This document shows, piece by piece, positions 329 to 17,554 of a stretch of 44,361 nucleotides of DNA. The notes under the pieces were generated by a model, which was not told where the DNA came from, made no database searches, and saw only the letters and a list, made by a program, of their open reading frames with translations. Origin of the DNA: Clostridia bacterium (GTDB taxonomy: Bacteria > Bacillota > Clostridia > TANB77 > CAG-465); contig JAFVCY010000061.1 in the NCBI GenBank assembly GCA_017478805.1, positions 1 through 44,361 of the forward strand, written 5' to 3'. Numbering within the stretch: position 1 is the stretch's first letter; each line of letters starts with the position of its first letter. Made by a program: the position numbers and the translations under genes.

Positions 329-1820
329 ATGTCATTTGATAGAACTATTCTTTTAAAAGAGCTTATTCCGGTTAGCTATAGTTTTACAGGATATGAAGCT
401 GAAAACATTGAAAATACAGGTAAAAATGAACTTTTTGGCAATTATACAATTGATATAAAAGGGCATAATGCAAGTGTTTGGTATCATGGAAATTCAATAT
501 CTATTTATTTTCCTGAAAATTACAAAAATGGACGCTTTTTACCACCAGATTTTAATAGCTTTGCAATTAATATAGATCAGCTTGCATATGAACTTAATAA
601 ATCTTTAAAAGAAGGTAGTGCTTATGTTTCGTTTTTGGTTTTTAGTAAATACAAAAGAGAAAAAGAATTTGAATTATTTACAATTACATTTGATTATGTA
701 GAGGCTAAAAAAGCATTTTTCTACTATTTTGGATTAATCTATAACGATGATGAAACGTTCAAAATAGCTTCATTAGAAAAGGAAGATATACCTTTTATGT
801 TTGATTACGAGGAAGATTTTAGCTTTGATAGATTTTCTCTTTTAAGGGAGCTTGTTCCAATAAAATACTATTTTTCAGGTTATTCAGAATATGATACAAA
901 TTTTCAAGATTACAAAAAGAATCCACTATTTCATACTCATAAAATTGTGGTAAGAGCTCATAATATCCACTTTTTTTTATAAATGCTGTGAAAACGAAGA
1001 GTCTGTAACTGTACATTTTGGCAAAATAGAATACTCATTTACCACTTTTTCAGATTTAGTGATAGAAATGGAGGACTTCTTGCAAAAATTTGCTAAAGCC
1101 TTAGAAAAATATTCATCTTCTATTGATATAAAGTTTAAGGTAAACACAAAGATGTCTTCAAATTTCGAAACTTGTGATTACTTTGCAATTTCATTTGATT
1201 ATGAAGATGTAAAAAAAGCCCTTTTGTACTACTTCGGACTAATCTATAACGATGACAATACAGTAGTACCTGCAGATAGGAAGTTTATTAATGAAAAATA
1301 TGGATTAGACTATAAAAAAGTTTTACCAAAGTGTGAAAAAAGTCAGCCATATGTTAATGATAGTATTTCAGATGAAAAAATCGATACTGAAAAAACGGAG
1401 AAAATTTCAGCTGAAGATGAAAAGGATGACTATTTAGATGACCTAAAGTCACTTATTCCTTTTATTCTAGCTGGAAATGATGCACAAAAAAGAAGTCTTA
1501 TGCAACTTTTGGCATTCAAATCAGTAAGTAAAAAAACAGATATTGCAAGGATGATACTTCTTTCACAAATGATAGATGTTCAAAATAACAAAACTACTTT
1601 AGATTACGAAGGCCAGGCATCTTCTATAGATATTTCTTATGCAGATGGAATGCTTTGCACAAAATGTAATATTTTCTACCCTATAGGTACTGAATTTTGC
1701 TCAAAATGTGGAAATAGTACCATTAAGTCAGTGCAGTTTTGCAAAAAATGTGGCTACAAAGCTAGTTTAGGCGATGTTTTCTGTAGAAAATGTGGAACAA
1801 GCCTTACTACCTTAAGTTAA
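329..1820 (+). CDS. Tandem-N-domain, multi-zinc-ribbon protein; reading frame interrupted at a T8 tract (ORFs 329..982 + 1059..1820)
   Basis: ORF 329..982 (RBS AAAGGAGG) carries one full ~140-aa domain and the start of a second copy. The second copy continues without stops in the +1 frame from 954 into ORF 1059..1820 (..RAHNIHFF|YKCCENEESVTVHFGKIEYSF..). That ORF ends in four CxxC pairs (two zinc ribbons). Removing one T of 971-978 gives a single 496-aa protein. Confidence 0.6.
971..978 (+). repeat. T8 homopolymer at the frame break of the 329..1820 gene
   Basis: Read directly: CAC TTTTTTTT ATAAATGC. Confidence 0.9.
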
Positions 1821-1897: not shown

Positions 1898-1926
1898 TTT
1901 ACTTTTTATGTAATGTGTGGTATAAT
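1898..1926 (+). promoter_or_regulatory. Sigma-A type promoter for the gene at 1991
   Basis: TTTACT (1898-1903), 17-nt spacer, extended -10 TGgTATAAT (1918-1926). It overlaps the ATG at 1913 of the ORF track. Confidence 0.55.
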
Positions 1927-1990
1927 AACCATGCAAAAAATTAATCATGATGATGTAATTACTACATCAAGTAAAAAAGGAGGTATTAAT

Positions 1991-3520
1991 ATGCCATTTG
2001 ACAAGAAAAATCTTTTAAGGAAGTTAATTCCCAAAAGCTACAGTTTTGATGGCTATGATGCAGTAGCTATAGAAGATGGAATAAGAGCTCCTCTTTTTTC
2101 TGATCACAGTATAGTAATGAACAATTTTACAGTAGACTTTTTGTACTATCCAGCAAAAGAGTTAGTAATTATAAAGTTTGAGGATAAAGCTATTGGAAGA
2201 CACTTTCAATCTTTTGATAATTACCAACTTAGTATAGATAATTTAGCTAAAATGCTTAAAGAAGCTATTCAAAATGGTGCCGATTTCATATCTTTTCCAG
2301 TTACTGCAAAATGGAATTTTGGGCAAGAGGTAGAAGATGAATATGCAGCTATATCTTTTAACCCATCGGAAGCTAAAGAAGCTCTTGCTTCTTACTTTGG
2401 TATAACTAATCAATCAGGAGGAAAGAAAACTATGAAAAAGAAAAATTCGCTTTTCGGTCTTAATCTTAAGTTCGGTCTGGTGAAAGACTCAAACATCGCA
2501 TCTACCATTATGGGTATTGCAGTAAAAAACGCAGAAACTGGTAACTGGTACATCTACGATAAGGCTGCAGGTACTCGGAAGAACATGGCAAACATAAAGC
2601 TTGGAAGTCTCCCTATCTATATGCTCCCTGTAAAGAAAGAGCAGCTTGCAACAGGTAAACTCATTATGTATAATAATGAATACTGCTTTGTTTACGATGT
2701 TGATCCCTCGAAAAATACCATAAAGATTATGAATGCGGCCGACGGCAATATTCGTGAGGTTATTCCTGAAGACAGCATAATTCCTGGAATGAGCTTCTTT
2801 ACAGAGCTTGTTGCTATGGATATGACTTCCCTTGCAAATCTTGGTGGTCCTAATCAGGGCATTTCGGGAAATATTATGGCAGCTATTTGCCTTATGCAGT
2901 GGTCTAAAGCAGATAATGACGATGAAAGTGAGTTTTCACTTGACGACATCGACGACAGCTCTTTCAATGGTCTCGGCGCGGCACTTCCCCTGCTTATGGC
3001 TGGAAACGGCAACTTAAGTAACAATCTGCTCCCTATCATGATGATGAGCTCTGGAGACGGACAGATGGATACAATGCAGCTTCTGCTGCTTTCGCAGATG
3101 ATGAGTGGCTCTGATCCGAATCTTGCAAATCCTTTCCAGAACATATTCCCTGCTTCAGCTGGCAGTGAATCAAATTCTGCAGGTGGCGACGTTAGATGTG
3201 AAAAATGCAATTCTCTCTATGACGCTGATACCGCTTACTGCCCGAAATGTGGCTCAAAAACAATACCTGCAGGAAGCTTTTGCAGAAGGTGCGGAAACAA
3301 ACTTATAGCAGGCGACCTCTTCTGCAGAAAATGTGGAACAAAAGTTGCAGAAGATAATGTTTGCCCAAGCTGTGGAAAAAAACTTGAGCCGGGCGATGCT
3401 TTTTGCCCTGGATGTGGAACTAACCTAAAAGTCCAGGCTATACCCGTTACTAGCCAGGCAAGTAATGAGAATATAGTAGCAGATACAATATCTGTAGCTG
3501 AAAGTTCTGATGATAAATAA
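1991..3520 (+). CDS. Paralogous N-domain protein with a G/C-richer central region and three C-terminal zinc ribbons
   Basis: Start moved to ATG 1991: GGAGG lies 7 nt upstream and the leader AAAGGAGGnATTAATATG matches the gene at 329. The N-terminus is homologous to both copies in 329..1820 (FDKKNLLRKLIPKSYSFDGY; ISFNPSEAKEALASYFG). Six CxxC pairs sit at the C-terminus. Confidence 0.75.
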   Translation: MPFDKKNLLRKLIPKSYSFDGYDAVAIEDGIRAPLFSDHSIVMNNFTVDFLYYPAKELVIIKFEDKAIGRHFQSFDNYQLSIDNLAKMLKEAIQNGADFISFPVTAKWNFGQEVEDEYAAISFNPSEAKEALASYFGITNQSGGKKTMKKKNSLFGLNLKFGLVKDSNIASTIMGIAVKNAETGNWYIYDKAAGTRKNMANIKLGSLPIYMLPVKKEQLATGKLIMYNNEYCFVYDVDPSKNTIKIMNAADGNIREVIPEDSIIPGMSFFTELVAMDMTSLANLGGPNQGISGNIMAAICLMQWSKADNDDESEFSLDDIDDSSFNGLGAALPLLMAGNGNLSNNLLPIMMMSSGDGQMDTMQLLLLSQMMSGSDPNLANPFQNIFPASAGSESNSAGGDVRCEKCNSLYDADTAYCPKCGSKTIPAGSFCRRCGNKLIAGDLFCRKCGTKVAEDNVCPSCGKKLEPGDAFCPGCGTNLKVQAIPVTSQASNENIVADTISVAESSDDK

Positions 3521-3828
3521 TGGGAATAAACTATTCAAAAAGACTTCCTATATCTACTCAGAAGGTTAAGAAGTGCGAAAGTTGTAAAAAAGTTTTTTCA
3601 GAAGATGCAAACTTTTGCAGTGCTTGTGGAAAGAAACTTATGACTGAAAAATTATCAGTTTACGCAAATATTGGAAAAAATGGTATATCTTCTTTTAGTT
3701 ACAAGCTTCCAAATGGAACTACAATAAATTCCAAAGGAAATATAACTTTAAAGCTTGCAAAGGGAATATCATATACTACAAATTCTAAACCTAAAAAGAA
3801 AAATACGAAGTCTAATGACAAAAATTAA
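3520..3828 (+). CDS. Small zinc-ribbon protein with DUF4236-like flanks
   Basis: ATG overlaps the upstream TAA (ATAATGG), implying translational coupling. It has CESC..CSAC plus MGINYSKRL.. and ..GISSFSYKLPNGTTINSKGNITLKLAKGISYTT, which resemble the DUF4236 repeat pattern (from memory). Confidence 0.55.
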   Translation: MGINYSKRLPISTQKVKKCESCKKVFSEDANFCSACGKKLMTEKLSVYANIGKNGISSFSYKLPNGTTINSKGNITLKLAKGISYTTNSKPKKKNTKSNDKN

Positions 3829-3840
3829 AATTTCAAAAGC

Positions 3841-3874
3841 CACGACTTATGCTATGCATAAGCCGTGACTTTTT
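3841..3874. terminator. Bidirectional terminator between the convergent units
   Basis: Stem CACGACTTATGC 3841-3852 / GCATAAGCCGTG 3856-3867 (one mismatch). T-run follows on the plus strand and a T-rich tail on the minus strand. It overlaps the last codons of 3852..5093. Confidence 0.7.
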
Positions 3875-5093
3875 CCTTATACTCATTAAATTCGTTTCTT
3901 GTAAGACCGTATGTGTAGTAGAGTGAGTTAAAGCTTGGAAGCTCTCTTTTTAGTATTTCACATGCTCTTTTTATGAAATCACAAGAATACACCTCGTTTT
4001 TCACACTTTTGTAATAATAAAGCATTGTAGCAGGAAGCTGGTCAAGACAGGTAAATACTACATTTACTTTTAACTCCTCTGATGCATGTTCTAAATCTTT
4101 TGATATGGATTTAAGTAACATGTCAAAATCTAGATATGAAAACCTTAAACTCCCCTGAAATTCATTAAATACATTAGTCCTATCTTCTACTCCACTATAC
4201 GGAATACTTTTAAGTTCATTTTTTAATTTTCCTGCTCCATGTCTTGTAAAGTAGCACCTACTTACATAATATACATCAACTTTTTCAGTATAATTAATAT
4301 CTTCTAAAATTTCTAGTGCATTTTTTATTCCCGTACTTGAAGATGTAACATTTGGAAATCCTTCTTCGTTATCTTTATCAAGCATTAGTCCCTGACTTCC
4401 TTCAAATACCACACTGTCAAATGCTGATATAATGCTATTTTCTTCTATTTCTATAGTTTTTAAAAATTCATTAGAGTAAAACATAAACATATCTATGTTT
4501 TCTTCATCGGTAATCAGAGCTTGATATTTTTCAGGTAAGTCCTTTAACGTTAGATTATACTCTTCTTTTAGTCTTTTTTGAACATATTCTTCTTGTATAA
4601 TTTTAAGTTTCTTTTTAAGGTTAGTTCTAAATATAAGGTCAGAAACTGTTATTTGATAGCTTAATTTTTTACTTCTTTCTACAGTTTCATTTATTCCAAA
4701 TCCACAACTTCCATGACGTGACATTCCCCTTAAGGTTTCAACAGCTTGATTTATATATACATCCCAAAAAGTAGTAACTAAAGCATGAGGATTAACTATT
4801 ACTTTTGGATTTAATCCAAAACTTTCTTCAAGCTTTTTTCTTTCAAGAACATATTCAGGTAGATTTATTATATAATATCTACTTAAGTATGTCTTAGCAC
4901 CTAAAAATGTACCACTTCCAAAGCTTCTAAATGCATGTCTATTACCATTTGGAGTAACTACAGTATGTGATGCCTGTGCTCCACCAGAAAACCGTACATT
5001 TAAAGTATTATTTTCTTGCGACAAAATATCAGTTATATGCCCTTTTCCTTCATCTCCCCACATACTCCCTATAATTATGCTGCATTTATTCAT
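3852..5093 (-). CDS. Divergent adenylosuccinate synthetase (PurA) family enzyme, substrate probably not the canonical IMP + aspartate
   Basis: PurA motifs occur in the canonical order: SMWGDEGKGH (P-loop GDEGKG), GGAQASHT (cf. GGHNAGHT), FEGSQG (cf. FEGAQG), VTSS, TRHGAG. RBS AAGGAGAG. The Arg-rich GxTTGRRRR loop and the (S/T)KLD guanine motif are altered. Confidence 0.8.
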   Translation of the reverse strand: MNKCSIIIGSMWGDEGKGHITDILSQENNTLNVRFSGGAQASHTVVTPNGNRHAFRSFGSGTFLGAKTYLSRYYIINLPEYVLERKKLEESFGLNPKVIVNPHALVTTFWDVYINQAVETLRGMSRHGSCGFGINETVERSKKLSYQITVSDLIFRTNLKKKLKIIQEEYVQKRLKEEYNLTLKDLPEKYQALITDEENIDMFMFYSNEFLKTIEIEENSIISAFDSVVFEGSQGLMLDKDNEEGFPNVTSSSTGIKNALEILEDINYTEKVDVYYVSRCYFTRHGAGKLKNELKSIPYSGVEDRTNVFNEFQGSLRFSYLDFDMLLKSISKDLEHASEELKVNVVFTCLDQLPATMLYYYKSVKNEVYSCDFIKRACEILKRELPSFNSLYYTYGLTRNEFNEYKEKVTAYA

Positions 5094-5113
5094 TTTGCTC
5101 TCCTTTTCCTTTT

Positions 5114-5139
5114 AAGTAAAAAGGGAGAGTTTTTCTCCC
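5114..5139 (-). terminator. Intra-operon hairpin plus U5 (partial terminator/attenuator) between the vWA and PurA-like genes
   Basis: Minus strand: GGGAGA / TCTCCC stem (5123-5128 with 5134-5139), 5-nt loop, then TTTTT (complement of 5118-5122). Confidence 0.45.
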
Positions 5140-5163
5140 CCTTCATTACTTAAAAAATGGTTA

Positions 5164-6117
5164 TTAAAATACATCAATTTGAGCGTTCTGCTCTATACTT
5201 ACCGCATTTTCCTTAACTATTTCTTCATGCGTTTCTAAAGCGTGAGATACCACATCTCTTGCATATACATCTTCAATTCCGTTTATTACATCTGCTTTAG
5301 GAACACCCTCATACATTTTAAGAACTGATGTTACAAGTTCAGGAAGGAATTCATGGTGAGTTAAATCAAGTGCATGAGAGCCCATAAGCTGTTTCCAGTC
5401 ATTTACAACTCCACTCGAATACCCATTACCTTGTAATATTACATGATAGCAGTAAAACTTTTCTTCTGCCATTTCAAGAAGATCAAGATTTGTGTACTGA
5501 CTTGGCTCGCCACTTAAATCTAAATTTTCTCCAAAAACCTTTTTTAAGCTTCTGCTTGTTATGTATGGTGTTGGATACTCATCTCCAAATGTGAAAAGGA
5601 ATCCCTTTTCTCCTCTTTTATCATAGCAGTCCATCTTTATGCATTTAGCTGCAAAATACCAAGGAAGGATGTAGCTTTCATAATTATTGTAGCCTCCTCT
5701 TTTTTCAAGCCATATTTTTTGAAGCTGGTCGAGCATTCTTAAATCAGCTTCAAACTGCGTTACTTGAAGTGGCGCTTCGTCAAATTCTACATCACCTACC
5801 CCCATAAACATTATATGAGGATTATATGAAACAGCGCTATATGTAGAAGTTATGAGCCGAGGGAACTGCTTGGTTATAAGGTCAAGTAAAAAGAACCCCA
5901 TTGAACCTGTTACATCTTCTGCAAAAATTATTCCTCTTGAATGCGGAGAATCAGGAGAGTCGCAAGCTTCTCTTGGAAGCTTAATCTTTGCCGGATTAAA
6001 CTCATCCTGCATATTTGTCTCCTTAAAAACCTGTGAAGCATTTGTTACGCTGCTCCACTCTTTTCTTTGTGCGTAGTAAGAACGGATTTCTTTTGCACCT
6101 ACTGATCTACCACCCAT
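5164..6117 (-). CDS. von Willebrand factor A (vWA) domain protein
   Basis: IIFAEDVTGSMG (hydrophobic strand plus MIDAS-like DxTGS) and a later FLFTFGDE strand. RBS AGGAGG lies 9 nt before ATG 6117. Confidence 0.7.
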   Translation of the reverse strand: MGGRSVGAKEIRSYYAQRKEWSSVTNASQVFKETNMQDEFNPAKIKLPREACDSPDSPHSRGIIFAEDVTGSMGFFLLDLITKQFPRLITSTYSAVSYNPHIMFMGVGDVEFDEAPLQVTQFEADLRMLDQLQKIWLEKRGGYNNYESYILPWYFAAKCIKMDCYDKRGEKGFLFTFGDEYPTPYITSRSLKKVFGENLDLSGEPSQYTNLDLLEMAEEKFYCYHVILQGNGYSSGVVNDWKQLMGSHALDLTHHEFLPELVTSVLKMYEGVPKADVINGIEDVYARDVVSHALETHEEIVKENAVSIEQNAQIDVF

Positions 6118-6141
6118 AATACTTTTCCTCCTAAATAAAAT

Positions 6142-7197
6142 TTAATTTATGGAAATGCCCATTTCGGCAAATCTCCTCTTTCCAAAGCTTTCTATTACAA
6201 CGTCTTCCCAAGTTTTAAATTCTTCGTAAGCATTTATCTTGATGCTACTTTCAGTAATCCATTTTTTCATTGCCTCCGGAATTTGAAATGCCTTGCTAGA
6301 GTCAAAGTTCAAAAGATTTCTTGCTACCTGCTTTATTGCAAGCAGATCTAAAACATACGAAGAATATCCTGTATTTTTTATTTGCTTTGGAAGTATGCTG
6401 TATATTTCAGCTGGAACTCCAGAAATCTTTTCGCCATAATTGGTAGAGAAAAACCATCCTCCATACACACCTACTATTCTTAAATCACTTACATTAAATT
6501 TGGCTCCTTCTTCTACAAATTTTCCAGGTGCAAAAAAGAGATTATCTACAGTAAGTGCATTATGAGAAATTTTTAAGATTTCTAGATAACACTCAAAATA
6601 GTAAAGTTTAGTAAGAATAGAAGCGACATACTCTGGCTTAATGTATCCACTAAAGTAATTTAATACCTCTCTTAAAGGATAAATCTGGCTTCCGTTTGGA
6701 AGAAGTGACTCTATGACAAAACCTTCCTCTCCCCTAAAATTATTTGAAAGTTTTGGAAACATGTACTGAACATTTTCCCACATACTACGATTTAACTTTG
6801 GAATAAATTTTGTCTTTGAAACGTAATTGTTATAATACTTTTCAAATTCTGGTTTTATAACAAAAATTACACTTTCTTTTGTTACATACATTGTTCCAAT
6901 TTTTATATCATATGAGTAGTCATATTCAAAAATAATCTTTGAGCCATCGTCTTTTATTAAAATCATATTAGAAGAAGTATGATAAGTAACCTCTCCACTT
7001 TCTATCATTTCTACTGCTTTTCTATATAATACTGTTACTTTTTGATTAAGAATAAAGTTCTTTACAGTTGCATATTCTTTTGGTCTAAACCGTTTTAAAT
7101 ATTCATTTTTTTCTTTTTCAATTACGTTTAGGTCTTGTGTGTAAATTTCAAACGGAGAAACTGCACTCATTATTTTTTCTTCGGATTCACATTTCAT
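6142..7197 (-). CDS. Hypothetical protein: N-terminal ~60-aa module shared with 7377..7889, C-terminal region with degenerate protein-kinase-like motif spacing
   Basis: Start moved to ATG 7197 (RBS AAAGGGG 7 nt upstream). Motif spacing resembles beta3-K / hinge / HRD..N / DFG / APE: VIFVIKPEF .. FVIESLLPNG .. ISHNALTVDNLFF .. VGVYGGWFF .. GVPAEIY. The catalytic Asp and DFG are not conserved. The kinase-like fold is an inference. Confidence 0.55.
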   Translation of the reverse strand: MKCESEEKIMSAVSPFEIYTQDLNVIEKEKNEYLKRFRPKEYATVKNFILNQKVTVLYRKAVEMIESGEVTYHTSSNMILIKDDGSKIIFEYDYSYDIKIGTMYVTKESVIFVIKPEFEKYYNNYVSKTKFIPKLNRSMWENVQYMFPKLSNNFRGEEGFVIESLLPNGSQIYPLREVLNYFSGYIKPEYVASILTKLYYFECYLEILKISHNALTVDNLFFAPGKFVEEGAKFNVSDLRIVGVYGGWFFSTNYGEKISGVPAEIYSILPKQIKNTGYSSYVLDLLAIKQVARNLLNFDSSKAFQIPEAMKKWITESSIKINAYEEFKTWEDVVIESFGKRRFAEMGISIN

Positions 7198-7260
7198 GAA
7201 AATTCCCCTTTCTTCATGCAAAATTGTTATTTTGCATTTTTTACCCTTATTACAGCTAGT

Positions 7261-7289
7261 ATTTTACCACACCGCAATTAATATGTCAA
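7261..7289 (-). promoter_or_regulatory. Sigma-A type promoter of the 3-gene operon 7197->3852
   Basis: Minus strand TTGACA (7289-7284), 17-nt spacer, TGgTAAAAT (-10 hexamer at 7266-7261). Confidence 0.7.
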
Positions 7290-7330
7290 CTAAATAATAA
7301 TATTTACCATATATTTTAGTATTTAGCAAA

Positions 7331-7354
7331 TAAAAAGCAGAAGAAAATTCTTCT
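7331..7354 (-). terminator. Short terminator after the 7377..7889 gene
   Basis: Palindrome AGAAGAAAATTCTTCT 7339-7354, followed on the minus strand by GC TTTTT. Confidence 0.45.
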
Positions 7355-7376
7355 ACTTTTTATAATTTACACTTTT

Positions 7377-7889
7377 TTAATGGTACATAAACATTTTATT
7401 CATTTTCATCATTTTTTTGTATCTTGCAATATTCTTTTTGCTTATATTTTTTAATTTACGCTCCATAAAAATCGCTCTAGACTTAAGAAGCTGTTTATAA
7501 ATCTCGCTACTTGAAGAGTAACCTCTATCATATTGGTAATTACCGTTTATTTCTTCTTGAGGTTCATATTCTTCACAGCCAAAGCTTATATTTTCCTCAG
7601 TCATTTTAAGTGCTTCATCTTCGACATTTTCTGCACACTGCTCAATATTTTCACTTTCTAAATCTTCATCTTGAGCCGAAACTTTTCCTTCTTTTAACAT
7701 TTCTAATGCCAAATTATACAAAATAGTTATCTTCATTGATATTACTAAATTTCTTACTCTTTCATAAGGTTTAGGAGCATATTCACTCAAAAAAATACTT
7801 AATTCTTGTTTCATTTTCTCCATATCCGGAGTGAATATTATAAAAGGATCACCCATTTCTATAGCAGATATTACTTTGCTTATTTCCAT
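7377..7889 (-). CDS. Small protein: paralog of the N-terminal module of 6142..7197, acidic linker, basic C-terminal tail
   Basis: 21 identities over a 57-residue ungapped hand alignment with 6142..7197 (DPFIIFTPDM..APKPYERVRN..KITILY..ALEMLKEGKV). It has its own promoter and terminator. Confidence 0.55.
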   Translation of the reverse strand: MEISKVISAIEMGDPFIIFTPDMEKMKQELSIFLSEYAPKPYERVRNLVISMKITILYNLALEMLKEGKVSAQDEDLESENIEQCAENVEDEALKMTEENISFGCEEYEPQEEINGNYQYDRGYSSSSEIYKQLLKSRAIFMERKLKNISKKNIARYKKMMKMNKMFMYH

Positions 7890-9854: not shown

Positions 9855-11552
9855 ATGGAAGGTACATATAATAAATATTTATTAAAACTTGCAAAAAAGT
9901 GCACACTTTCTGAGGAATTTATAGATATTATAGATAAATTTTTTAATAAACTAATTGATTTTGGATATATCTCTAGAAGAGCTAAAATTAACCTTTCAAA
10001 AAAGCTTTTAAACAACTTAGATACAGTGATTGTGTCAAATAACCAGTCAATAGATTTTAAGACAGGATATTATGATGCAAACAAGAAAGAGTTATATTTG
10101 AAAGATATTTCAAATCTCCAGTCAGTATACTTAAGGCTTCTTTATGTTGTAACTACTAAAGAGTTATCTGACGGGACATATTCTACAGGGTATTCAAAAT
10201 CTTTCCAATCTAAAACATCATTTGGAATAGAACACAAAAATTTTGGAATTAATAGAGCTGTTATGTCAAATCTAGTTTGTAGATTACTCTATACACTGCC
10301 TACTACTCTTTCTATTGTTCCAACATACAGGACTTATGAAAATAACTTTTTAGGCTACAAAATTAATTCTGACAATGATATATATTTCTTAGAGGGAAAA
10401 GTTCTAAGACAAATATGCTACGTTTTAGGAATTAGTGAAGAAAAGCTATACTCAAACCTATTTTCACTTAATCCAACTAGAGAAATATCAAAAATATTCG
10501 ACAAAATAGATGATGGCGATATTCTATTTTACTTAGATAGAATAAGTAGAGCGTATTCAAACTACAATAAACTTTGCTATTACAATAATTTAATATCTGA
10601 TAATTATATAGAAATAAAAAAGACTGCAAGTACTCCAGAAGCTACTTTTGCAATTGCAAAAAAACGTGAGATTGAACTTTCACTAAAAAAAGTTATGCAA
10701 AAAATGTTCCCTGAGCTTGATGATGATAATGAAAATCCACTTCTTAATCTTGAAGGAAGCTTAGCAGAAAAAATTTCAGATTTAGAAGAACTTATACTTG
10801 AGTATTTATCTAAAGTTCAAGAAGTGCTCGCAAACGAGCTAGTTAAACAAAAAAATAAATTCTCACCACTTGGATATGTTACTAAGCTAAAAGTTTTTGA
10901 GGATATGTTAGTACTTAAAAATGACATTATAACAAAAGAAATACACGATACGATAACTCATAGTCTTATCTTTGCTAATGAGTATAGCTGTACAAATTTA
11001 ATAGAAAAGATTAAATATTCTTTAGCACTTTTTGGCCTTTCAAGTACGAACAATTTGAAAATTTTTGATGATACTAAGTTTTATAAACTAAAAGGAATTA
11101 ATGAAAGCTTGTCTACTTCTGCAATTTGTATTAGAAATGGTGACTTTCTAGAGATTGCTAATATTTCAAAGCTTGATAAGGAAACAAGTGATATAATGGA
11201 TAATGTTGAGTTATTAAAATTGAGCTCTATTGCACATATGTTAAATACTAGTACTTCTTCTGAAATACTTGAAACAATTATTACGAATATAAGGGATTAT
11301 GATGAAGCATATAAAAAATTAGATGTAAGTAACCTTTATCTTGCAAAAGATGAATATCATACATATATAATAGTAAATAATATACCAAATCCGGTAATAT
11401 TTACAGTTGATAAAGATGCTTTGGTAAATATAGTAAACTTTTCTGAGCAGTATATTATTCTTGGTGAAACTACTTCACTTCCTACAGTGTATAAAGAGAG
11501 AAAATTATTTAATTTTATTAGAAATCTTCCTTTATTCCAAAAAAGTAATTAG
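9855..11552 (+). CDS. Hypothetical protein, 565 aa, no domain recognised
   Basis: Long ORF with RBS GGAGG 8 nt before the ATG. Possible own promoter (TTGTAA 9789-9794 / TATCAT 9812-9817). Terminator downstream. Confidence 0.75.
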   Translation: MEGTYNKYLLKLAKKCTLSEEFIDIIDKFFNKLIDFGYISRRAKINLSKKLLNNLDTVIVSNNQSIDFKTGYYDANKKELYLKDISNLQSVYLRLLYVVTTKELSDGTYSTGYSKSFQSKTSFGIEHKNFGINRAVMSNLVCRLLYTLPTTLSIVPTYRTYENNFLGYKINSDNDIYFLEGKVLRQICYVLGISEEKLYSNLFSLNPTREISKIFDKIDDGDILFYLDRISRAYSNYNKLCYYNNLISDNYIEIKKTASTPEATFAIAKKREIELSLKKVMQKMFPELDDDNENPLLNLEGSLAEKISDLEELILEYLSKVQEVLANELVKQKNKFSPLGYVTKLKVFEDMLVLKNDIITKEIHDTITHSLIFANEYSCTNLIEKIKYSLALFGLSSTNNLKIFDDTKFYKLKGINESLSTSAICIRNGDFLEIANISKLDKETSDIMDNVELLKLSSIAHMLNTSTSSEILETIITNIRDYDEAYKKLDVSNLYLAKDEYHTYIIVNNIPNPVIFTVDKDALVNIVNFSEQYIILGETTSLPTVYKERKLFNFIRNLPLFQKSN

Positions 11553-14115: not shown

Positions 14116-17100
14116 TTATTTATTATTTTTATTTATCATTTTTTGTAGTTCTTTTAGGTAAAATTCAGCAGATAATAACACATCTTTTGAGCTTAAGTTA
14201 TATATCAAATCCTGCTCTAATTTATCTGATGATATTATAATGCTTGCATTTTTTCTTGATATTTTCTTTATTCCAAGCTCTCTACATATATTTCTTATCT
14301 CAACTATCTTTATTAAGTTTTCCACTTCTTTTGGAACAGTACCATATCTATCTAGCATTTCTTCTATCAAAGCTACACTTTCCTTTTTGTTTTCTATTTC
14401 TGAAATCTTATGATACATTGAGATTTTTTGCACCATATCAGATATATACGTATCAGGTATATATGCAGATACGCCAAGATCTATTTTTACTTCTCTATTT
14501 TTTATCATTTCTTGCTCTTTTAAGTCATCTATATTTTTACCATTTTGCGCTCTTGATACTGCTTTTTCAAGCATTGAAATGTACATTTCATAACCAATTG
14601 CAACCATATGTCCATGCTGAGCCCTTCCGAAGTATATTTCCAGCACCTCTTATTTCTAAGTCACGCATCGCTATTTTAAAGCCACTACCAAATTCTGTGA
14701 AGTCTTTTATAGCTTTTAGTCTTTTTTCAGAAGTCTCACTTAAAACTCTATCTTTTTTGTATGTTATATATGCATATGCAAGTCTGCTTGACCTACCTAC
14801 TCTTCCTCTTATTTGATAAAGTGCAGCAAGTCCTAGTTTTTCTGCATCTTCAACAATTAATGTGTTTGCATTTGGAATATCTATTCCAGATTCTAGTATT
14901 GTTGTACAAACAATTATATCTATTTCATGGTTTACAAATGCCATCATTATATCTTCTATATCTTTTGGGTCCATTTGCCCATGTGCAAACGCAACTTTTG
15001 CCGATGGTGGCGCAAGCATTTTAACCTTTTCTGCCACTTTTTCAATATTTTCTACTCTGTTGTTTATATAAAAGACCTGACCATCACGAGAAAGCTCTCT
15101 TTCTATTGCTACTTTTATTATGTTTTCATCATACTCCATTACATATGTATGTACTGGCATCCTCTCAAGTGGTGGAGTAGTAAGCGTGCTCATTGTTCTT
15201 ACTCCTATCATTGACATATTAAGTGTTCTAGGTATAGGTGTTGCTGTCATTGAGAGTACATCTACATTTTGCTTTAGCTCTTTTATTGTTTCTTTTGCTT
15301 TAACTCCAAATCTATGCTCCTCATCAATTATTAATAGTCCCAAATCTCTAAATTTAACATCACTAGACAAAAGTCTATGTGTTCCAATTACAATATCTAT
15401 GCTTCCTTCTGCTAAACCTTTTATTATTTTCTTCTGCTCACTTTGAGATTTAAATCTAGATAACATTTCAACTTTTATTCCAAATTTTTCCATCCTATTT
15501 TTAAATGTGGTAAATTGCTGAAGTGAAAGTACTGTTGTAGGCACTAAGTATGCTACCTGCTTTGAGTCCATTACCGCTTTAAAAGCTGCCCTTATTGCAA
15601 CTTCAGTTTTTCCGTAACCTACATCACCACAAAGAAGTCTATCCATAGGCTTTTCATCTTGCATGTCTTTTTTTACATCAAGCACTGCATATTCTTGGTC
15701 TTCAGTTAGTTCATACGGAAAGTCATCTTCAAATTCTTTTTGCCAAGGAGTGTCTTCTGAGAACTTGAAGCCTTTTGCTTTATCTCTTAATGCATAAAGC
15801 TCTACTAAATCTTTTGCCACCTCATCTACATTTGCTCTTGCTTTTGAGATTGCCTTGTTCCACTCTTTTGAGCCAAGTGTATTTAATTTTGGTGTTGCTT
15901 CCTCATCGCACATGTATTTCTTTATACTATCTAGCTGTGAGATAGGTACAAATATTACCGCTGCATCTGCATACTCAATTTTCATATAATCAGATGTTAC
16001 ATTTTCTACATCTACTGTCTGCACACCTTTGTACATACCTATTCCATGTGATTCATGAACAACATAGTCTCCTATTTTCAAATCCTCAAACGAGTTTATA
16101 ATCTGCCCAAATGTATTTGACTTGTTATTTCTTCTTGTCTTGTTATATACCCCGCTAACTTCTTCTGCTATAACTGTTAAATTAAATTCTTTTATATCAT
16201 ACCCTGATGATAGAATGCCTTGCGTTATATATACTTTTCCTTCTTCTAGAGTTTCAGAAAATAGATTATCTATTTTTTTTGCGTATATTTTGCTATCTAA
16301 AAGCATATTCTTTATCTGCTCTACTCTAACTAGCGTAGGGAATACTAAAAGTACAATGTTTTCTTCTTTGTTTTTTATATCTCCCATTAACATCTCTACA
16401 GAGTTTTTATAGAAATTCATCTCCTTGCACTCAAAAGTTACTTTTTCTCTATTTGAATGCATAGCTGCATCTAGACATATCTTTTCAAAATATACATTTG
16501 TCTTATCTGAAAGCACACTTTCTATATTATTAAATGTATATAACTTTGAGGCATATTTGGGAATAATATACTCCTTTTCTACAAGCATTTTTAATGTTTC
16601 TTCATTTTCGTATAACAAACTACCTGCTTTTTCTATACATCTAGATGGTTCATCTATATATATAACAAAATTTTCTAGATTTTCTAAAAAGCAAACTGCA
16701 CCTTCATTTATTACTTCGAAGTATTTATCCATTACTTTATTTAGTTCATAGTTTTCTACCAATTCTAAATCTTCTGATATATTCTTTTTTAACAGTTTTG
16801 AGTTTTTATCATTTTTTAGCTCAGTATTTAACAAATCTATTAATTTATTTCTTTTCTTTTCTGAGACATTAAATTCTGAGATATTTGAAAGATTAATACT
16901 TTCTATATTCTCTATACTTCTTTGACTTACCGCATCAAATGTTCTAATTGATTCTACTGTATCAAATGCAAGCTGGATTCTAACCGGCACTTCATCATCT
17001 ATTCCAAATATATCTATTATCTCTCCTCTATGTGAGAACTGGCCTTTTCCTTCTACAAAGCTTGCTCTTTCATAACCTAGATTTGAGAGTGAATCTAGCA

Positions 17101-17554
17101 GCTCGTCTATGTTTATTTTTTTATCTTTGCAAATTTCAATACTTTTTGCCTTATAACTATCTAAACTTAAGCATTTTTGCATTATTGCATCTATTGTTGT
17201 AACTAAAATTATTTTCTTTTTTGATATTATTCTTTCTATAGCGTACATCCTAGCATTTTGAACTTCTTTACTTTCTGCCTCTACGTTATAGTATGTAAGT
17301 TGCCTTGCTGGAAAGTATACTATTTCTATATCTGAAACAAATTTTAAGTCTGCTATTGTTTTTCTTGCTTGCATAGCATTTGGACATACTATGCAAGCTG
17401 ATTTATCTGAATTTAAACTTAAAGAATATACCATATGTGCACTTATTGTGCTTTCTAGCCCAAATACTGATATTTCTTCTTTTTCTTCTTTTAGTTTTTC
17501 TAAAAGAAATGTGTACTTCTCACTTTTTCCAAAGTTTTTTACTAAATTATTCAT
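14116..17554 (-). CDS. mfd: Transcription-repair coupling factor Mfd, frame interrupted at an in-frame CGG (ORFs 14588..17554 + 14116..14646)
   Basis: GDVGYGKTEVA, IDEEHRFG, SMTATPIPRTL, RGRVGRS. The two ORFs differ by one nt at CGG 14629-14627. Skipping the C gives ..RGAGNIL|GRAQHGHMVAIGYEMY.., the conserved Mfd motif. Confidence 0.9.

Follow-up and report, generated by a model that had tools for sequence, protein, structure and literature searches.

A PurA-like protein from a Clostridial gene cassette belongs to a distinct, vWA-coupled clade of the PurA superfamily with a possible role in NAD+ and ADP-ribose physiology

The gene at positions 3852 to 5093 (minus strand) of a 44,361-nucleotide stretch of Clostridia bacterium DNA (contig JAFVCY010000061.1; the whole stretch is referred to here as the window) encodes a protein that resembles adenylosuccinate synthetase (PurA). 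A preliminary description of the window had proposed that this protein kept the phosphotransfer core of PurA, lost the motifs that recognize aspartate and guanine, and used a different nucleotide and/or amine substrate. Our analysis points to a PurA-superfamily member that is neither the housekeeping PurA nor the phage enzyme PurZ, that belongs to a distinct clade with altered PurA chemistry, and that works as a pair with a von Willebrand factor A (vWA) protein in NAD/ADP-ribose physiology. For these propositions taken together we estimate a probability of about 0.5. The decisive features, which go beyond the preliminary description, are the obligatory coupling to the vWA gene and the link to NAD/ADP-ribose genes. 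The two genes that carry the argument are as follows.

3852-5093, minus strand: PurA-like ligase, 413 amino acids (aa); partial PF00709 match, PHROG_1211, residue mapping, clade placement, Shine-Dalgarno sequence and ATG start.

5164-6117, minus strand: vWA-fold partner, 317 aa; AlphaFold2 model with Foldseek search, PHROG_2971 (E-value 1e-30); separated from the PurA-like gene by a 70-nucleotide gap.

The open reading frame (ORF) at 3852-5093 starts with ATG, with the Shine-Dalgarno sequence AAAGGAGAG located 5' of the start codon. The Pfam profile PF00709 (Adenylsucc_synt) matched the product with 142 bits (gathering score, 27), with aa 6 to 306 aligned to profile positions 1 to 288 of 416. 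All of the NCBIfam purA equivalog models scored 56 to 118 bits versus cut-offs of 368 to 700, including TIGR00184 (109 bits; cut-off, 395) and NF002223 (118 bits; cut-off, 402), and the NCBIfam model for PurZ, NF038379, scored 44.7 bits versus a cut-off of 300. The best profile in the library was PHROG_1211 (185 bits). The closest solved structures were those of ordinary PurA (∼70 bits), and no member of the protein's own clade was found among the matching structures. The motifs listed in the preliminary description were all found in the protein, which contains WGDEGKG (aa 12 to 18), GGAQASHT, FEGSQG, VTSS, HGSCGFGINETV, FNEFQGSLRFSYLD, and FTCLD, and their assignment was borne out when the protein was aligned with Escherichia coli PurA.

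In PurA, the 5'-phosphate of IMP is bound by Asn38, Thr129, Thr239, and Arg143 (the last from the other subunit), L-aspartate is bound by Thr301, Arg303, and Arg305, and specificity for guanine is determined by the (N/T)KxD motif and Ser414. In order to compare these positions, the PurA-like protein was aligned with E. coli PurA and phiVC8 PurZ with MAFFT (residue numbers are those of E. coli unless the window protein is specified), 113 non-identical clade sequences were compared with 50 canonical PurAs, and a list of signature residues was drawn from an alignment of 42 diverse clade members. D13, K16, H41, Q224, and T239 are kept in the PurA-like protein as D14, K17, H43, Q234, and T250, and the first four of these, the phosphotransfer residues, are 97 to 100% conserved across the clade. 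Together with the Pfam match, this agrees with the view of the protein as a PurA-family paralog with an intact phosphotransfer core.

The substrate-binding residues are different. All four IMP 5'-phosphate ligands are 98 to 100% conserved in the canonical PurAs, as are T128, T129, K140, R143, R147, V273, T301, R303, and R305, but three of the four phosphate ligands are replaced in the PurA-like protein. N38 is replaced by Q40, T128/T129 by S129/C130 (Ser in 97% and Cys in 89% of the clade), and R143 is lost (aligned to Ser or a gap). R131 is a Phe, and K140 and R147 are likewise lost. V273 is replaced by H285, which is His in 99% of the clade, and T300/T301 by F312/Q313, with Q313 found in 97%. 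R303 is lost (aligned to Ser or a gap), and R305 corresponds to either R317, which is invariant in the clade, or L316, depending on the alignment; in the wider alignment of 113 sequences neither the R303 nor the R305 column contains Arg, and R317 falls on the next Arg. In either alignment, at most one of the four Arg in the RRRR stretch of PurA survives.

At the guanine site, K331 is replaced by C349 (Cys or His in the clade), and D333 is kept as D351 in the motif TCLD, this Asp being invariant in the 42-sequence alignment and found as Asp in 71% and Asn in 27% of the wider clade. The position of S414 is Thr in the PurA-like protein and Ser in 73% of the clade. The C-terminal domain is ∼40 residues shorter than that of PurA. 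Because the specificity Asp is kept, use of GTP is probably retained. The proposed loss of aspartate and guanine recognition was upheld for aspartate, with T301 and R303 replaced, but was overstated for guanine, for which D333 is kept and only K331 has changed.

Gln40, Ser129-Cys130, His285, aromatic312-Gln313, and Arg317, with Asp14, His43, and Gln234, make up a signature of the clade, and all of these residues are present in the PurA-like protein. They are invariant or nearly invariant in the 42 diverse members and 89 to 99% conserved in the 113 sequences. As the same replaced residues are conserved across 113 relatives, the pattern is not one of decay; it is a second, conserved active-site signature that is neither chance nor decay, in which the aspartate site and most of the IMP 5'-phosphate site were swapped for another, equally conserved set of residues. 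The change in substrate motifs first noticed in a single sequence is therefore common to the 113 relatives, and a different nucleotide and/or amine substrate is supported by the replaced and conserved site, by the failure to reach the PurA and PurZ cut-offs, and by the separate position of the clade.

A HMMER scan of 1.84 billion cluster representatives detected 2,677 representatives of 50%-identity clusters at an E-value of ≤1e-30. Since canonical PurA reaches only ∼70 bits with the same query, these are members of the clade and not housekeeping enzymes. A hidden Markov model (HMM) built from the 42 diverse clade members was applied to loci from GTDB genomes. Among the matches listed, it scored clade members at ≥189 bits and canonical PurA at 128 to 175 bits, the exception being one truncated clade sequence (L039; 173 bits), and it scored the window protein at 556 bits. 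The neighbor-joining tree (a distance method only) included 86 sequences, among them 22 canonical bacterial PurAs, E. coli PurA, one archaeal PurA, and PurZ. The clade was separate from both canonical PurA and PurZ (bootstrap, 80/100). PurZ was the most distant sequence in the distance matrix. The window protein and its Clostridial orthologs formed a subclade (bootstrap, 99/100) that was nested among phage sequences.

The clade occurs in bacteria, plasmids, and large phages, and the window protein is a genuine member of a clade that has no name of its own and is already in databases under misleading names. The label of PHROG_1211, '2-aminooxy adenylosuccinate synthetase', has been copied into RefSeq phage records, such as L003 (NC_023733.1) at 5989-7317, and is borne by clade genes of cluster C mycobacteriophages, Rhizobium phages, and Vibrio phages. 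In these phage genes Asp13 is retained and the PurZ context is missing, and they fall inside the vWA-coupled clade, so the PurZ-type name is probably wrong and represents a systematic mis-annotation. In a 2026 study of phage PF00709 homologs, sequences that were neither PurA nor PurZ served only as an outgroup, outside the PurZ group (PMC12884076). No functional study of the clade was found in the literature searched. Automatic annotation labels thousands of bacterial, plasmid, and large-phage genes, including those of ∼200 sequenced mycobacteriophages, as adenylosuccinate synthetase or PurZ, and they are apparently neither.

One Anaerolineae metagenome-assembled genome contig (L027) also has a second, very divergent PF00709-like ORF at 6134-7399, located 3 kb downstream of a complete kinase-vWA-PurA-like module. 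Its score with the clade HMM (101 bits) is below the ranges of both the clade and canonical PurA.

The PurA-like gene is functionally tied to a vWA protein that bears a metal ion-dependent adhesion site (MIDAS). The set of loci that was compared consisted of 119 clade loci (36 bacterial or plasmid and 83 viral), 110 of which had sufficient upstream DNA. In 106 of these 110 loci, from many phyla and from phages, a gene for a MIDAS-containing vWA protein was observed ≤4 kb from the PurA-like gene, whereas no vWA partner was found beside canonical purA in any of the 49 loci examined. In at least 36 loci the gene upstream of the vWA gene encoded a kinase-fold protein, and in 40 it encoded a Met-rich (MR) protein; the two were found together only in the Clostridial cassette. 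Adjacent vWA and PurA-like genes were found in relatives of Vibrio phage Va1, in ∼200-kb Rhizobium phages, and in ∼200 genomes of Mycobacterium phages (cluster C), in which a gene annotated as 'Ser/Thr kinase' precedes the pair. The phage collection contained 218 records with a vWA-like gene and 236 with a PurA-family gene, and the counts for the two genes were near-identical for Mycobacterium, Rhizobium, and Vibrio phages. On pAtS4e, a conjugative plasmid of Allorhizobium ampelinum (formerly Agrobacterium vitis) S4, the arrangement is NUDIX<>kinase-fold-vWA-PurA-like; the first two products of the trio are annotated as hypothetical (the kinase-fold protein was recognized with an hhalign probability of 99.8%) and the third as 'adenylosuccinate synthetase'.

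Two of these groups of loci have further neighbors. Directly downstream of the module on pAtS4e (L171, 7479-13131) there is an AAA ATPase-DUF5682-DUF4132 set, which is another putative multi-gene system, with a type VI secretion system VgrG gene nearby. In contigs of large phages from the human gut (L123-L135 and L144-L170; IMG/VR sample 3300045988), an MR-vWA-PurA-like trio has as neighbors genes for YpsA/SLOG, Thg1-like, metallophosphoesterase, radical-SAM/SPASM, LemA, and SPFH proteins, to which some contigs add NAMPT, Macro, and Prs-like genes.

The vWA partner in the window had no Pfam match, and its profile found nothing significant in the PDB by sequence alone; the fold was recognized only after structure prediction. 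The top Foldseek matches in the PDB for the AlphaFold2 model (pLDDT, 86) were all vWA or integrin I domains. The MIDAS is complete (D68-x-T70-G-S72...T176...D179). The gene has the Shine-Dalgarno sequence AGGAGG and starts ATG GGT GGT. The vWA partners begin with Met-Gly in 98% of 85 diverse sequences, with the N-terminus on a poorly ordered tail ahead of the domain core.

The clade is also associated with genes for NAD+ and ADP-ribose metabolism. Of 30 bacterial loci, 11 had a regulator of the NrtR type (Nudix plus winged helix, an ADP-ribose sensor) beside the module, in most cases oriented divergently to the vWA gene. Among 80 viral loci, there were 12 with a NAMPT gene, 8 with Macro, 6 with Prs-like, and 2 with NADAR. 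The 49 loci of equal length around canonical purA contained none of these five types of gene. In Flavobacterium ginsengiterrae, the order is NrtR-Prs-like-x-vWA-PurA-like-NADAR-x-Macro-Macro-DUF4291, with ADP-ribosylglycohydrolase-NAMPT further downstream. The divergent NrtR genes in bacteria and the genes for NAD+ salvage and ADP-ribose processing in phages suggest that the role of the module lies in the response to NAD+ consumption.

In several loci (L013, 7949-7969; L014, 4037-4055; L017, 8967-8988; and L018, 3699-3721), perfect or near-perfect palindromes occupy the intergenic region that separates the NrtR gene from the vWA or kinase-fold gene. In Streptomyces (L033, L037, and L040, at ∼6880-6960), palindromes were found just upstream of a co-directional NrtR gene. 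Palindromes such as TTTGTTATTTGCAAATAACAAA and TAATTGCATATCGCAATTA, the former from the Methylobacterium locus L017, are candidate NrtR operators.

An operon of unknown function regulated by NrtR, nrtX-nrtY, was listed by Rodionov et al. in 2008 for Streptomyces, Kineococcus, Frankia, Proteus, and Hahella, where it is arranged as nrtR<#>nrtX-nrtY (PMC2330246). This layout matches NrtR<>vWA-PurA-like, and the taxa overlap (Streptomyces, other actinobacteria, and proteobacteria), which suggests that the vWA-PurA-like pair is probably nrtX-nrtY; the cassette in the window differs in that it has no NrtR. A 2025 survey of Legionella ADP-ribosyltransferases reported that, in 60% of neighborhoods, a DarT-like ADP-ribosyltransferase family had adenylosuccinate-synthetase genes next to it (PMC12522546). 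These genes may be related to the vWA-coupled clade. The papers on NARP1 and RyDEP do not mention the PurA-like clade, and the NAD-ADPr survey from the Aravind laboratory mentions vWA chaperones and no PurA-like enzyme. No description of the conserved module and its association with ADP-ribose/NAD genes was found in the literature searched.

Phage systems for the reconstitution of NAD+ consist of Adps and Namat (NARP1) or Nampt and Nmnat (NARP2). The module is found in the same regions of phage genomes as Prs-like and NAMPT-like genes, in surroundings of the NrtR type, and a role after the breakdown of NAD+ is plausible. The PurA-like enzyme has no sequence relationship to NARP1 or NARP2, and they are linked to the module by gene neighborhood alone.

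The PurA-like clade and PurA (EC 6.3.4.4; PF00709 and TIGR00184) have in common the superfamily, the N-terminal architecture, the GDEGKG P-loop with Asp13 and Lys16, His41, Gln224, Thr239, and the Asp of the (T)xLD motif. The two-step chemistry of PurA, in which O-phosphorylation is followed by displacement by an amine, is probably also common to both. Unlike PurA, the clade lacks the T301, R303, and R305 ligands and the N38, T129, and R143 ligands, has its own invariant Gln40, Cys130, His285, Gln313, and Arg317, is paired with the vWA protein, and is not located among purine genes. We infer that the PurA-like protein is catalytic and that it probably couples a nucleotide to a partner that is not aspartate. 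A nucleoside triphosphate, probably GTP, would phosphorylate the carbonyl oxygen of a lactam-type acceptor resembling a 6-oxopurine, as in PurA. If the retained residues act as they do in PurA, Asp13 would be the base, His41 and Lys16 would act on the gamma-phosphate, and Gln224 would contact the base of the acceptor. A nitrogen nucleophile, rather than free L-aspartate, would then displace the phosphate. The former L-aspartate pocket (T301, R303, and R305) appears to have been remodeled and now to consist of an aromatic residue, Gln, and a single Arg, and the acceptor would be unlike IMP on the phosphate side. Because the aspartate pocket is rebuilt, three of four 5'-phosphate ligands are replaced, and V273 has become an invariant His, the amine and the phosphate-side half of the acceptor are expected to differ from aspartate and IMP.

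The enzyme would be obligately paired with the vWA protein encoded immediately upstream, which, with its MIDAS intact, could be an adaptor, an activator, or a substrate. A scaffold with a pseudokinase fold and/or the MR protein would usually join the pair, and in Clostridia all of these would act from one five-gene cassette. The module is envisaged to act when NAD+ is consumed and ADP-ribose is released, in homeostasis or in conflict between phage and host, and not in de novo purine synthesis. It is conceivable, although doubtful, that the vWA partner itself supplies the nucleophile in place of aspartate, through the alpha-amino group of its invariant N-terminal Gly, which would be exposed after removal of Met on a flexible tail of 45 to 60 residues. 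If so, a purine nucleotide would be attached via N6 to the N-terminus of a protein (+330 Da), an 'N-terminal purinylation', and such conjugation of a nucleotide to a protein, in ADP-ribose/NAD-linked conflicts of phages and bacteria, would be a chemistry that is not known to date.

Several points weigh against this proposal as a whole. The substrates cannot be read from the sequence for any member of the clade. The alignment of the aspartate loop shifts by one position between runs, and the C-terminal third aligns poorly to PurA, so that the conclusions on the guanine site depend on a single motif. Near the cassette in the window there is neither an NrtR nor an NAD gene, and the NAD/ADP-ribose link is an association at the level of the clade, seen in about one-quarter of the loci. 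Many of the viral loci are from one metagenome (3300045988) and may be related, and the set with which enrichment was compared consisted of canonical purA loci rather than random phage regions. The vWA-PurA-like pair was equated with nrtX-nrtY on the basis of layout and taxa rather than locus tags.

The protein might instead be a divergent but functional adenylosuccinate synthetase, either the purA of the organism or, in phages, an auxiliary gene that raises AMP synthesis. The PF00709 score above gathering and the retained D13, K16, H41, Q224, and T239 would be expected of such an enzyme, PGAP names the plasmid copies 'adenylosuccinate synthetase', as do most phage annotations, and no other purA was seen within the 44-kb window. 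However, the equivalog scores of 56 to 118 bits are far from the cut-offs of 368 to 700, the residues R303, R305, T301, T129, and R143 are found in 100% of the 50 canonical enzymes and are replaced in the clade in the wider alignment, the clade is separate in the neighbor-joining tree, and pairing with vWA is absent from all 49 canonical purA loci examined. Furthermore, the gene is found on a conjugative plasmid and in phages whose hosts are expected to have a chromosomal purA. Thus, a divergent PurA seems quite improbable. An enzyme of the PurZ type, which forms 2-aminoadenylosuccinate from dGMP for Z-base DNA, is suggested by the description of PHROG_1211 and the RefSeq phage annotations, and both PurZ/PurZ0 (NF038379) and the PurA-like clade are phage-associated PurA paralogs that have been re-tooled at the substrate site. 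This likeness is the extent to which the parallel with PurZ drawn in the preliminary description holds. PurZ of phiVC8 has Ser in place of the Asp13 that the PurA-like protein keeps, PurZ uses aspartate while the clade lacks the aspartate ligands, and PurZ (∼340 aa, archaeal-like) travels with datZ, mazZ, or dpoZ, whereas the companions of the PurA-like protein are vWA, pseudokinase, and MR proteins. No datZ, mazZ, or dpoZ-type genes were found among the annotated neighbors, and the neighbors in the window (vWA, kinase-fold, zinc ribbons, and RmuC) included no HD dATPase, MazG, or PolA genes. With the PurZ model at 44.7 bits versus a cut-off of 300, PurZ as the farthest sequence in the distance matrix, and such sequences placed outside the PurZ group in the 2026 phylogeny (PMC12884076), a PurZ-type activity is hardly credible.

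Two other alternatives take the vWA partner or the NAD-related neighbors as the starting point. The PurA-like protein could be a non-catalytic or purely hydrolytic GTP switch that, with the vWA protein as adaptor, remodels or chaperones a target such as an ADP-ribosylated protein, in the manner of MoxR-type ATPases and their vWA partners. vWA proteins typically partner P-loop NTPases, and they have been proposed to be Mg2+-dependent peptide-binding chaperones in NrtR-regulated ADP-ribosylglycohydrolase systems (PMC9503650), a proposal that favors a switch. The pseudokinase scaffold, Met-rich tails, and zinc ribbons resemble a protein-protein machine, and the substrate-site residues of PurA are largely gone. 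Yet Asp13 (the base), Gln224, and His41, which only a reaction at the acceptor base would require, are 97 to 100% conserved, and the near-invariant Q40, C130, H285, Q313, and R317 argue for a new, specific site for a small ligand rather than loss of a site, which makes the switch unlikely. Re-ligation of NAD+ by one enzyme, as an analogue of phage NARP1 in two steps of the PurA kind, would require that GTP phosphorylate the anomeric hydroxyl of ADP-ribose and that nicotinamide displace the phosphate. The association with NrtR, NAMPT or Prs-like, Macro, ARH, and NADAR genes is consistent with this reaction, the aromatic residue and Gln in the former aspartate pocket could hold nicotinamide, and a rebuilt 5'-phosphate site would be expected for a larger, ADP-containing substrate. 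It is nevertheless very improbable: the kept Asp13 and Gln224 point to a lactam-type purine acceptor and not to a sugar hydroxyl, the reaction would be redundant where Prs-like and NAMPT-like genes co-occur, the obligatory vWA partner would be left unexplained, and no experimental hint was found in the NARP papers searched.

Knowledge of the reaction of the PurA-like protein would correct a widespread mis-annotation, would probably assign a function to nrtX-nrtY, and might add a new nucleotide product or protein-nucleotide linkage to the NAD+-centered arms race between phages and bacteria. Handy entry points for experiments are A. ampelinum S4 with pAtS4e, Streptomyces, and relatives of mycobacteriophage Bxz1.

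In Clostridial metagenome contigs, genes for ∼351-aa, ∼317-aa, and PurA-like proteins follow each other on one strand, and genes for ∼90-aa and ∼522-aa zinc-ribbon proteins are convergent with them. This cassette recurs in differing surroundings (ruvAB/murG, HAD/Ham1, and LytR). In the window the five-gene arrangement is complete: the minus strand carries 6142-7197, 5164-6117, and 3852-5093, and the plus strand carries 3520-3828 together with 1913-3520. Each of the three minus-strand genes has a good Shine-Dalgarno sequence 5' of it. The other features of the cassette and its immediate surroundings are as follows.

6142-7197, minus strand: protein-kinase-fold protein, predicted pseudokinase, 351 aa; ATG at 7197, with the ORF reaching a TTG at 7221.

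7261-7289, minus strand: promoter-like site TTGACA-17-TAAAAT with TG, assigned from an 11/12 consensus match only; just upstream of the kinase-fold gene and thus of the three-gene operon.

7377-7889, minus strand: 170-aa ORF just upstream of the operon; weak match to the HMM of the kinase-fold family (A3; E-value, 1.4e-10), no Pfam match.

3520-3828, plus strand: small zinc-ribbon protein, 102 aa; weak Zn_ribbon_3 and DZR matches; convergent with the PurA-like gene.

1913-3520, plus strand: MR protein fused to double zinc ribbons, 535 aa; DZR and Zn_Ribbon_1 at aa 428-505.

1059-1820, plus strand: zinc-ribbon paralog, 253 aa; DZR and Zn_Ribbon_1; in a BLAST cluster with the MR family, no match to the F3 HMM.

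329-982, plus strand: possible third MR paralog, weak, 217 aa; F3 HMM match (E-value, 1.8e-6) over the N-terminal 41 residues only; no Pfam match.

The top Foldseek matches in the PDB for the model of the 351-aa protein (AlphaFold2; pLDDT, 84) were all protein kinases, the pseudokinase VRK3 among them. The sequence of the catalytic loop is HN(A/G)xTxDN, in which the Asp of the HRD motif is absent, and the DFG-like Asp is absent in the wider kinase-fold relatives, including the pAtS4e homolog. The protein is predicted from these features to be a pseudokinase. The possibility of a J-domain at its N-terminus was dropped, as the HPD motif is missing and nothing but helices is seen in the model. 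The 170-aa ORF upstream of the operon may derive from the pseudokinase gene, as a remnant or as a duplicated fragment.

The start of the small zinc-ribbon gene overlaps the stop of the MR gene upstream (1913-3520), and an ∼90-aa ortholog is found in the same place in Clostridial contigs L004-L008. The true start of the MR protein is likely to be Met27, at 1991. MR orthologs of 522 to 524 aa are present in contigs L004-L007. The MR region of ∼200 aa, with a Met/Gly-rich tail (…LLPIMMMSSG…), is shared by phage proteins of ∼205 aa whose genes immediately precede the vWA gene; these fall into families F3 and F8, which had no Pfam or PHROG match. The F3 HMM matched the 535-aa protein with 169 bits over aa 27 to 370. 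Direct BLASTP comparison of the MR protein of the window with that of Vibrio phage was not significant, and the two are linked by profile comparison (hhalign, 88%) with moderate confidence. Whether the zinc-ribbon paralog at 1059-1820 is a member of the module is uncertain.

An architecture related to that of the cassette is found in the TerY-P triad of a vWA protein, a Ser/Thr kinase, and a PP2C phosphatase, which was reportedly put forward as a defence candidate by Gao et al. in 2020. The likeness is at the level of architecture, with a vWA protein of intact MIDAS beside a kinase-fold protein, often with double zinc-ribbon proteins. Unlike TerY-P, the cassette has no phosphatase, its kinase-fold protein lacks the catalytic Asp, and its third enzyme is the PurA-like ligase. 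The TerY-P models of PADLOC did not match the vWA or PurA-like protein, and there was only a weak, unrelated match for the kinase-fold protein; a PADLOC scan of the five cassette proteins found nothing meaningful.

The cassette is flanked by genes for RmuC, a SpoU methylase, a peptidyl-prolyl isomerase, Mfd, and a topoisomerase and by a polysaccharide cluster, and these genes indicate that the locus is chromosomal. A prophage or plasmid context was rejected, with no tRNAs detected in a scan of the window and with DNA-repair and polysaccharide genes as flanks. The absence of phage context asserted in the preliminary description is therefore correct for the window but misleading for the clade, in which the Clostridial proteins are nested among phage sequences, with phage genes as the nearest outgroups, and the gene pair is found in phages. 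The G+C content is 0.33 to 0.38 over positions 2001-6000, compared to 0.24 to 0.32 in the rest of the window. This raised G+C content and the different neighborhoods in related genomes are compatible with horizontal acquisition of the cassette.

Elsewhere in the window, a 565-aa ORF with no Pfam or PHROG match is located at 9855-11552 (plus strand), between rmuC and the SpoU methylase gene. An Mfd/TRCF-like ORF at 14588-17554 (minus strand; 988 aa) is followed by an overlapping 176-aa ORF at 14116-14646, and the region 14116-17554 may be an mfd gene that is frameshifted or split, or may reflect an error in assembly. A long co-directional cluster for polysaccharide biosynthesis occupies 21558-44267 (minus strand), with genes for acyltransferase_3, UDP-glucose dehydrogenase, a Polysacc_synt flippase, GT2, GT4, and DUF1972 proteins. 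At 41225-42862, this cluster also encodes a CotH-kinase protein with Fn3_assoc and CHB_HEX domains.

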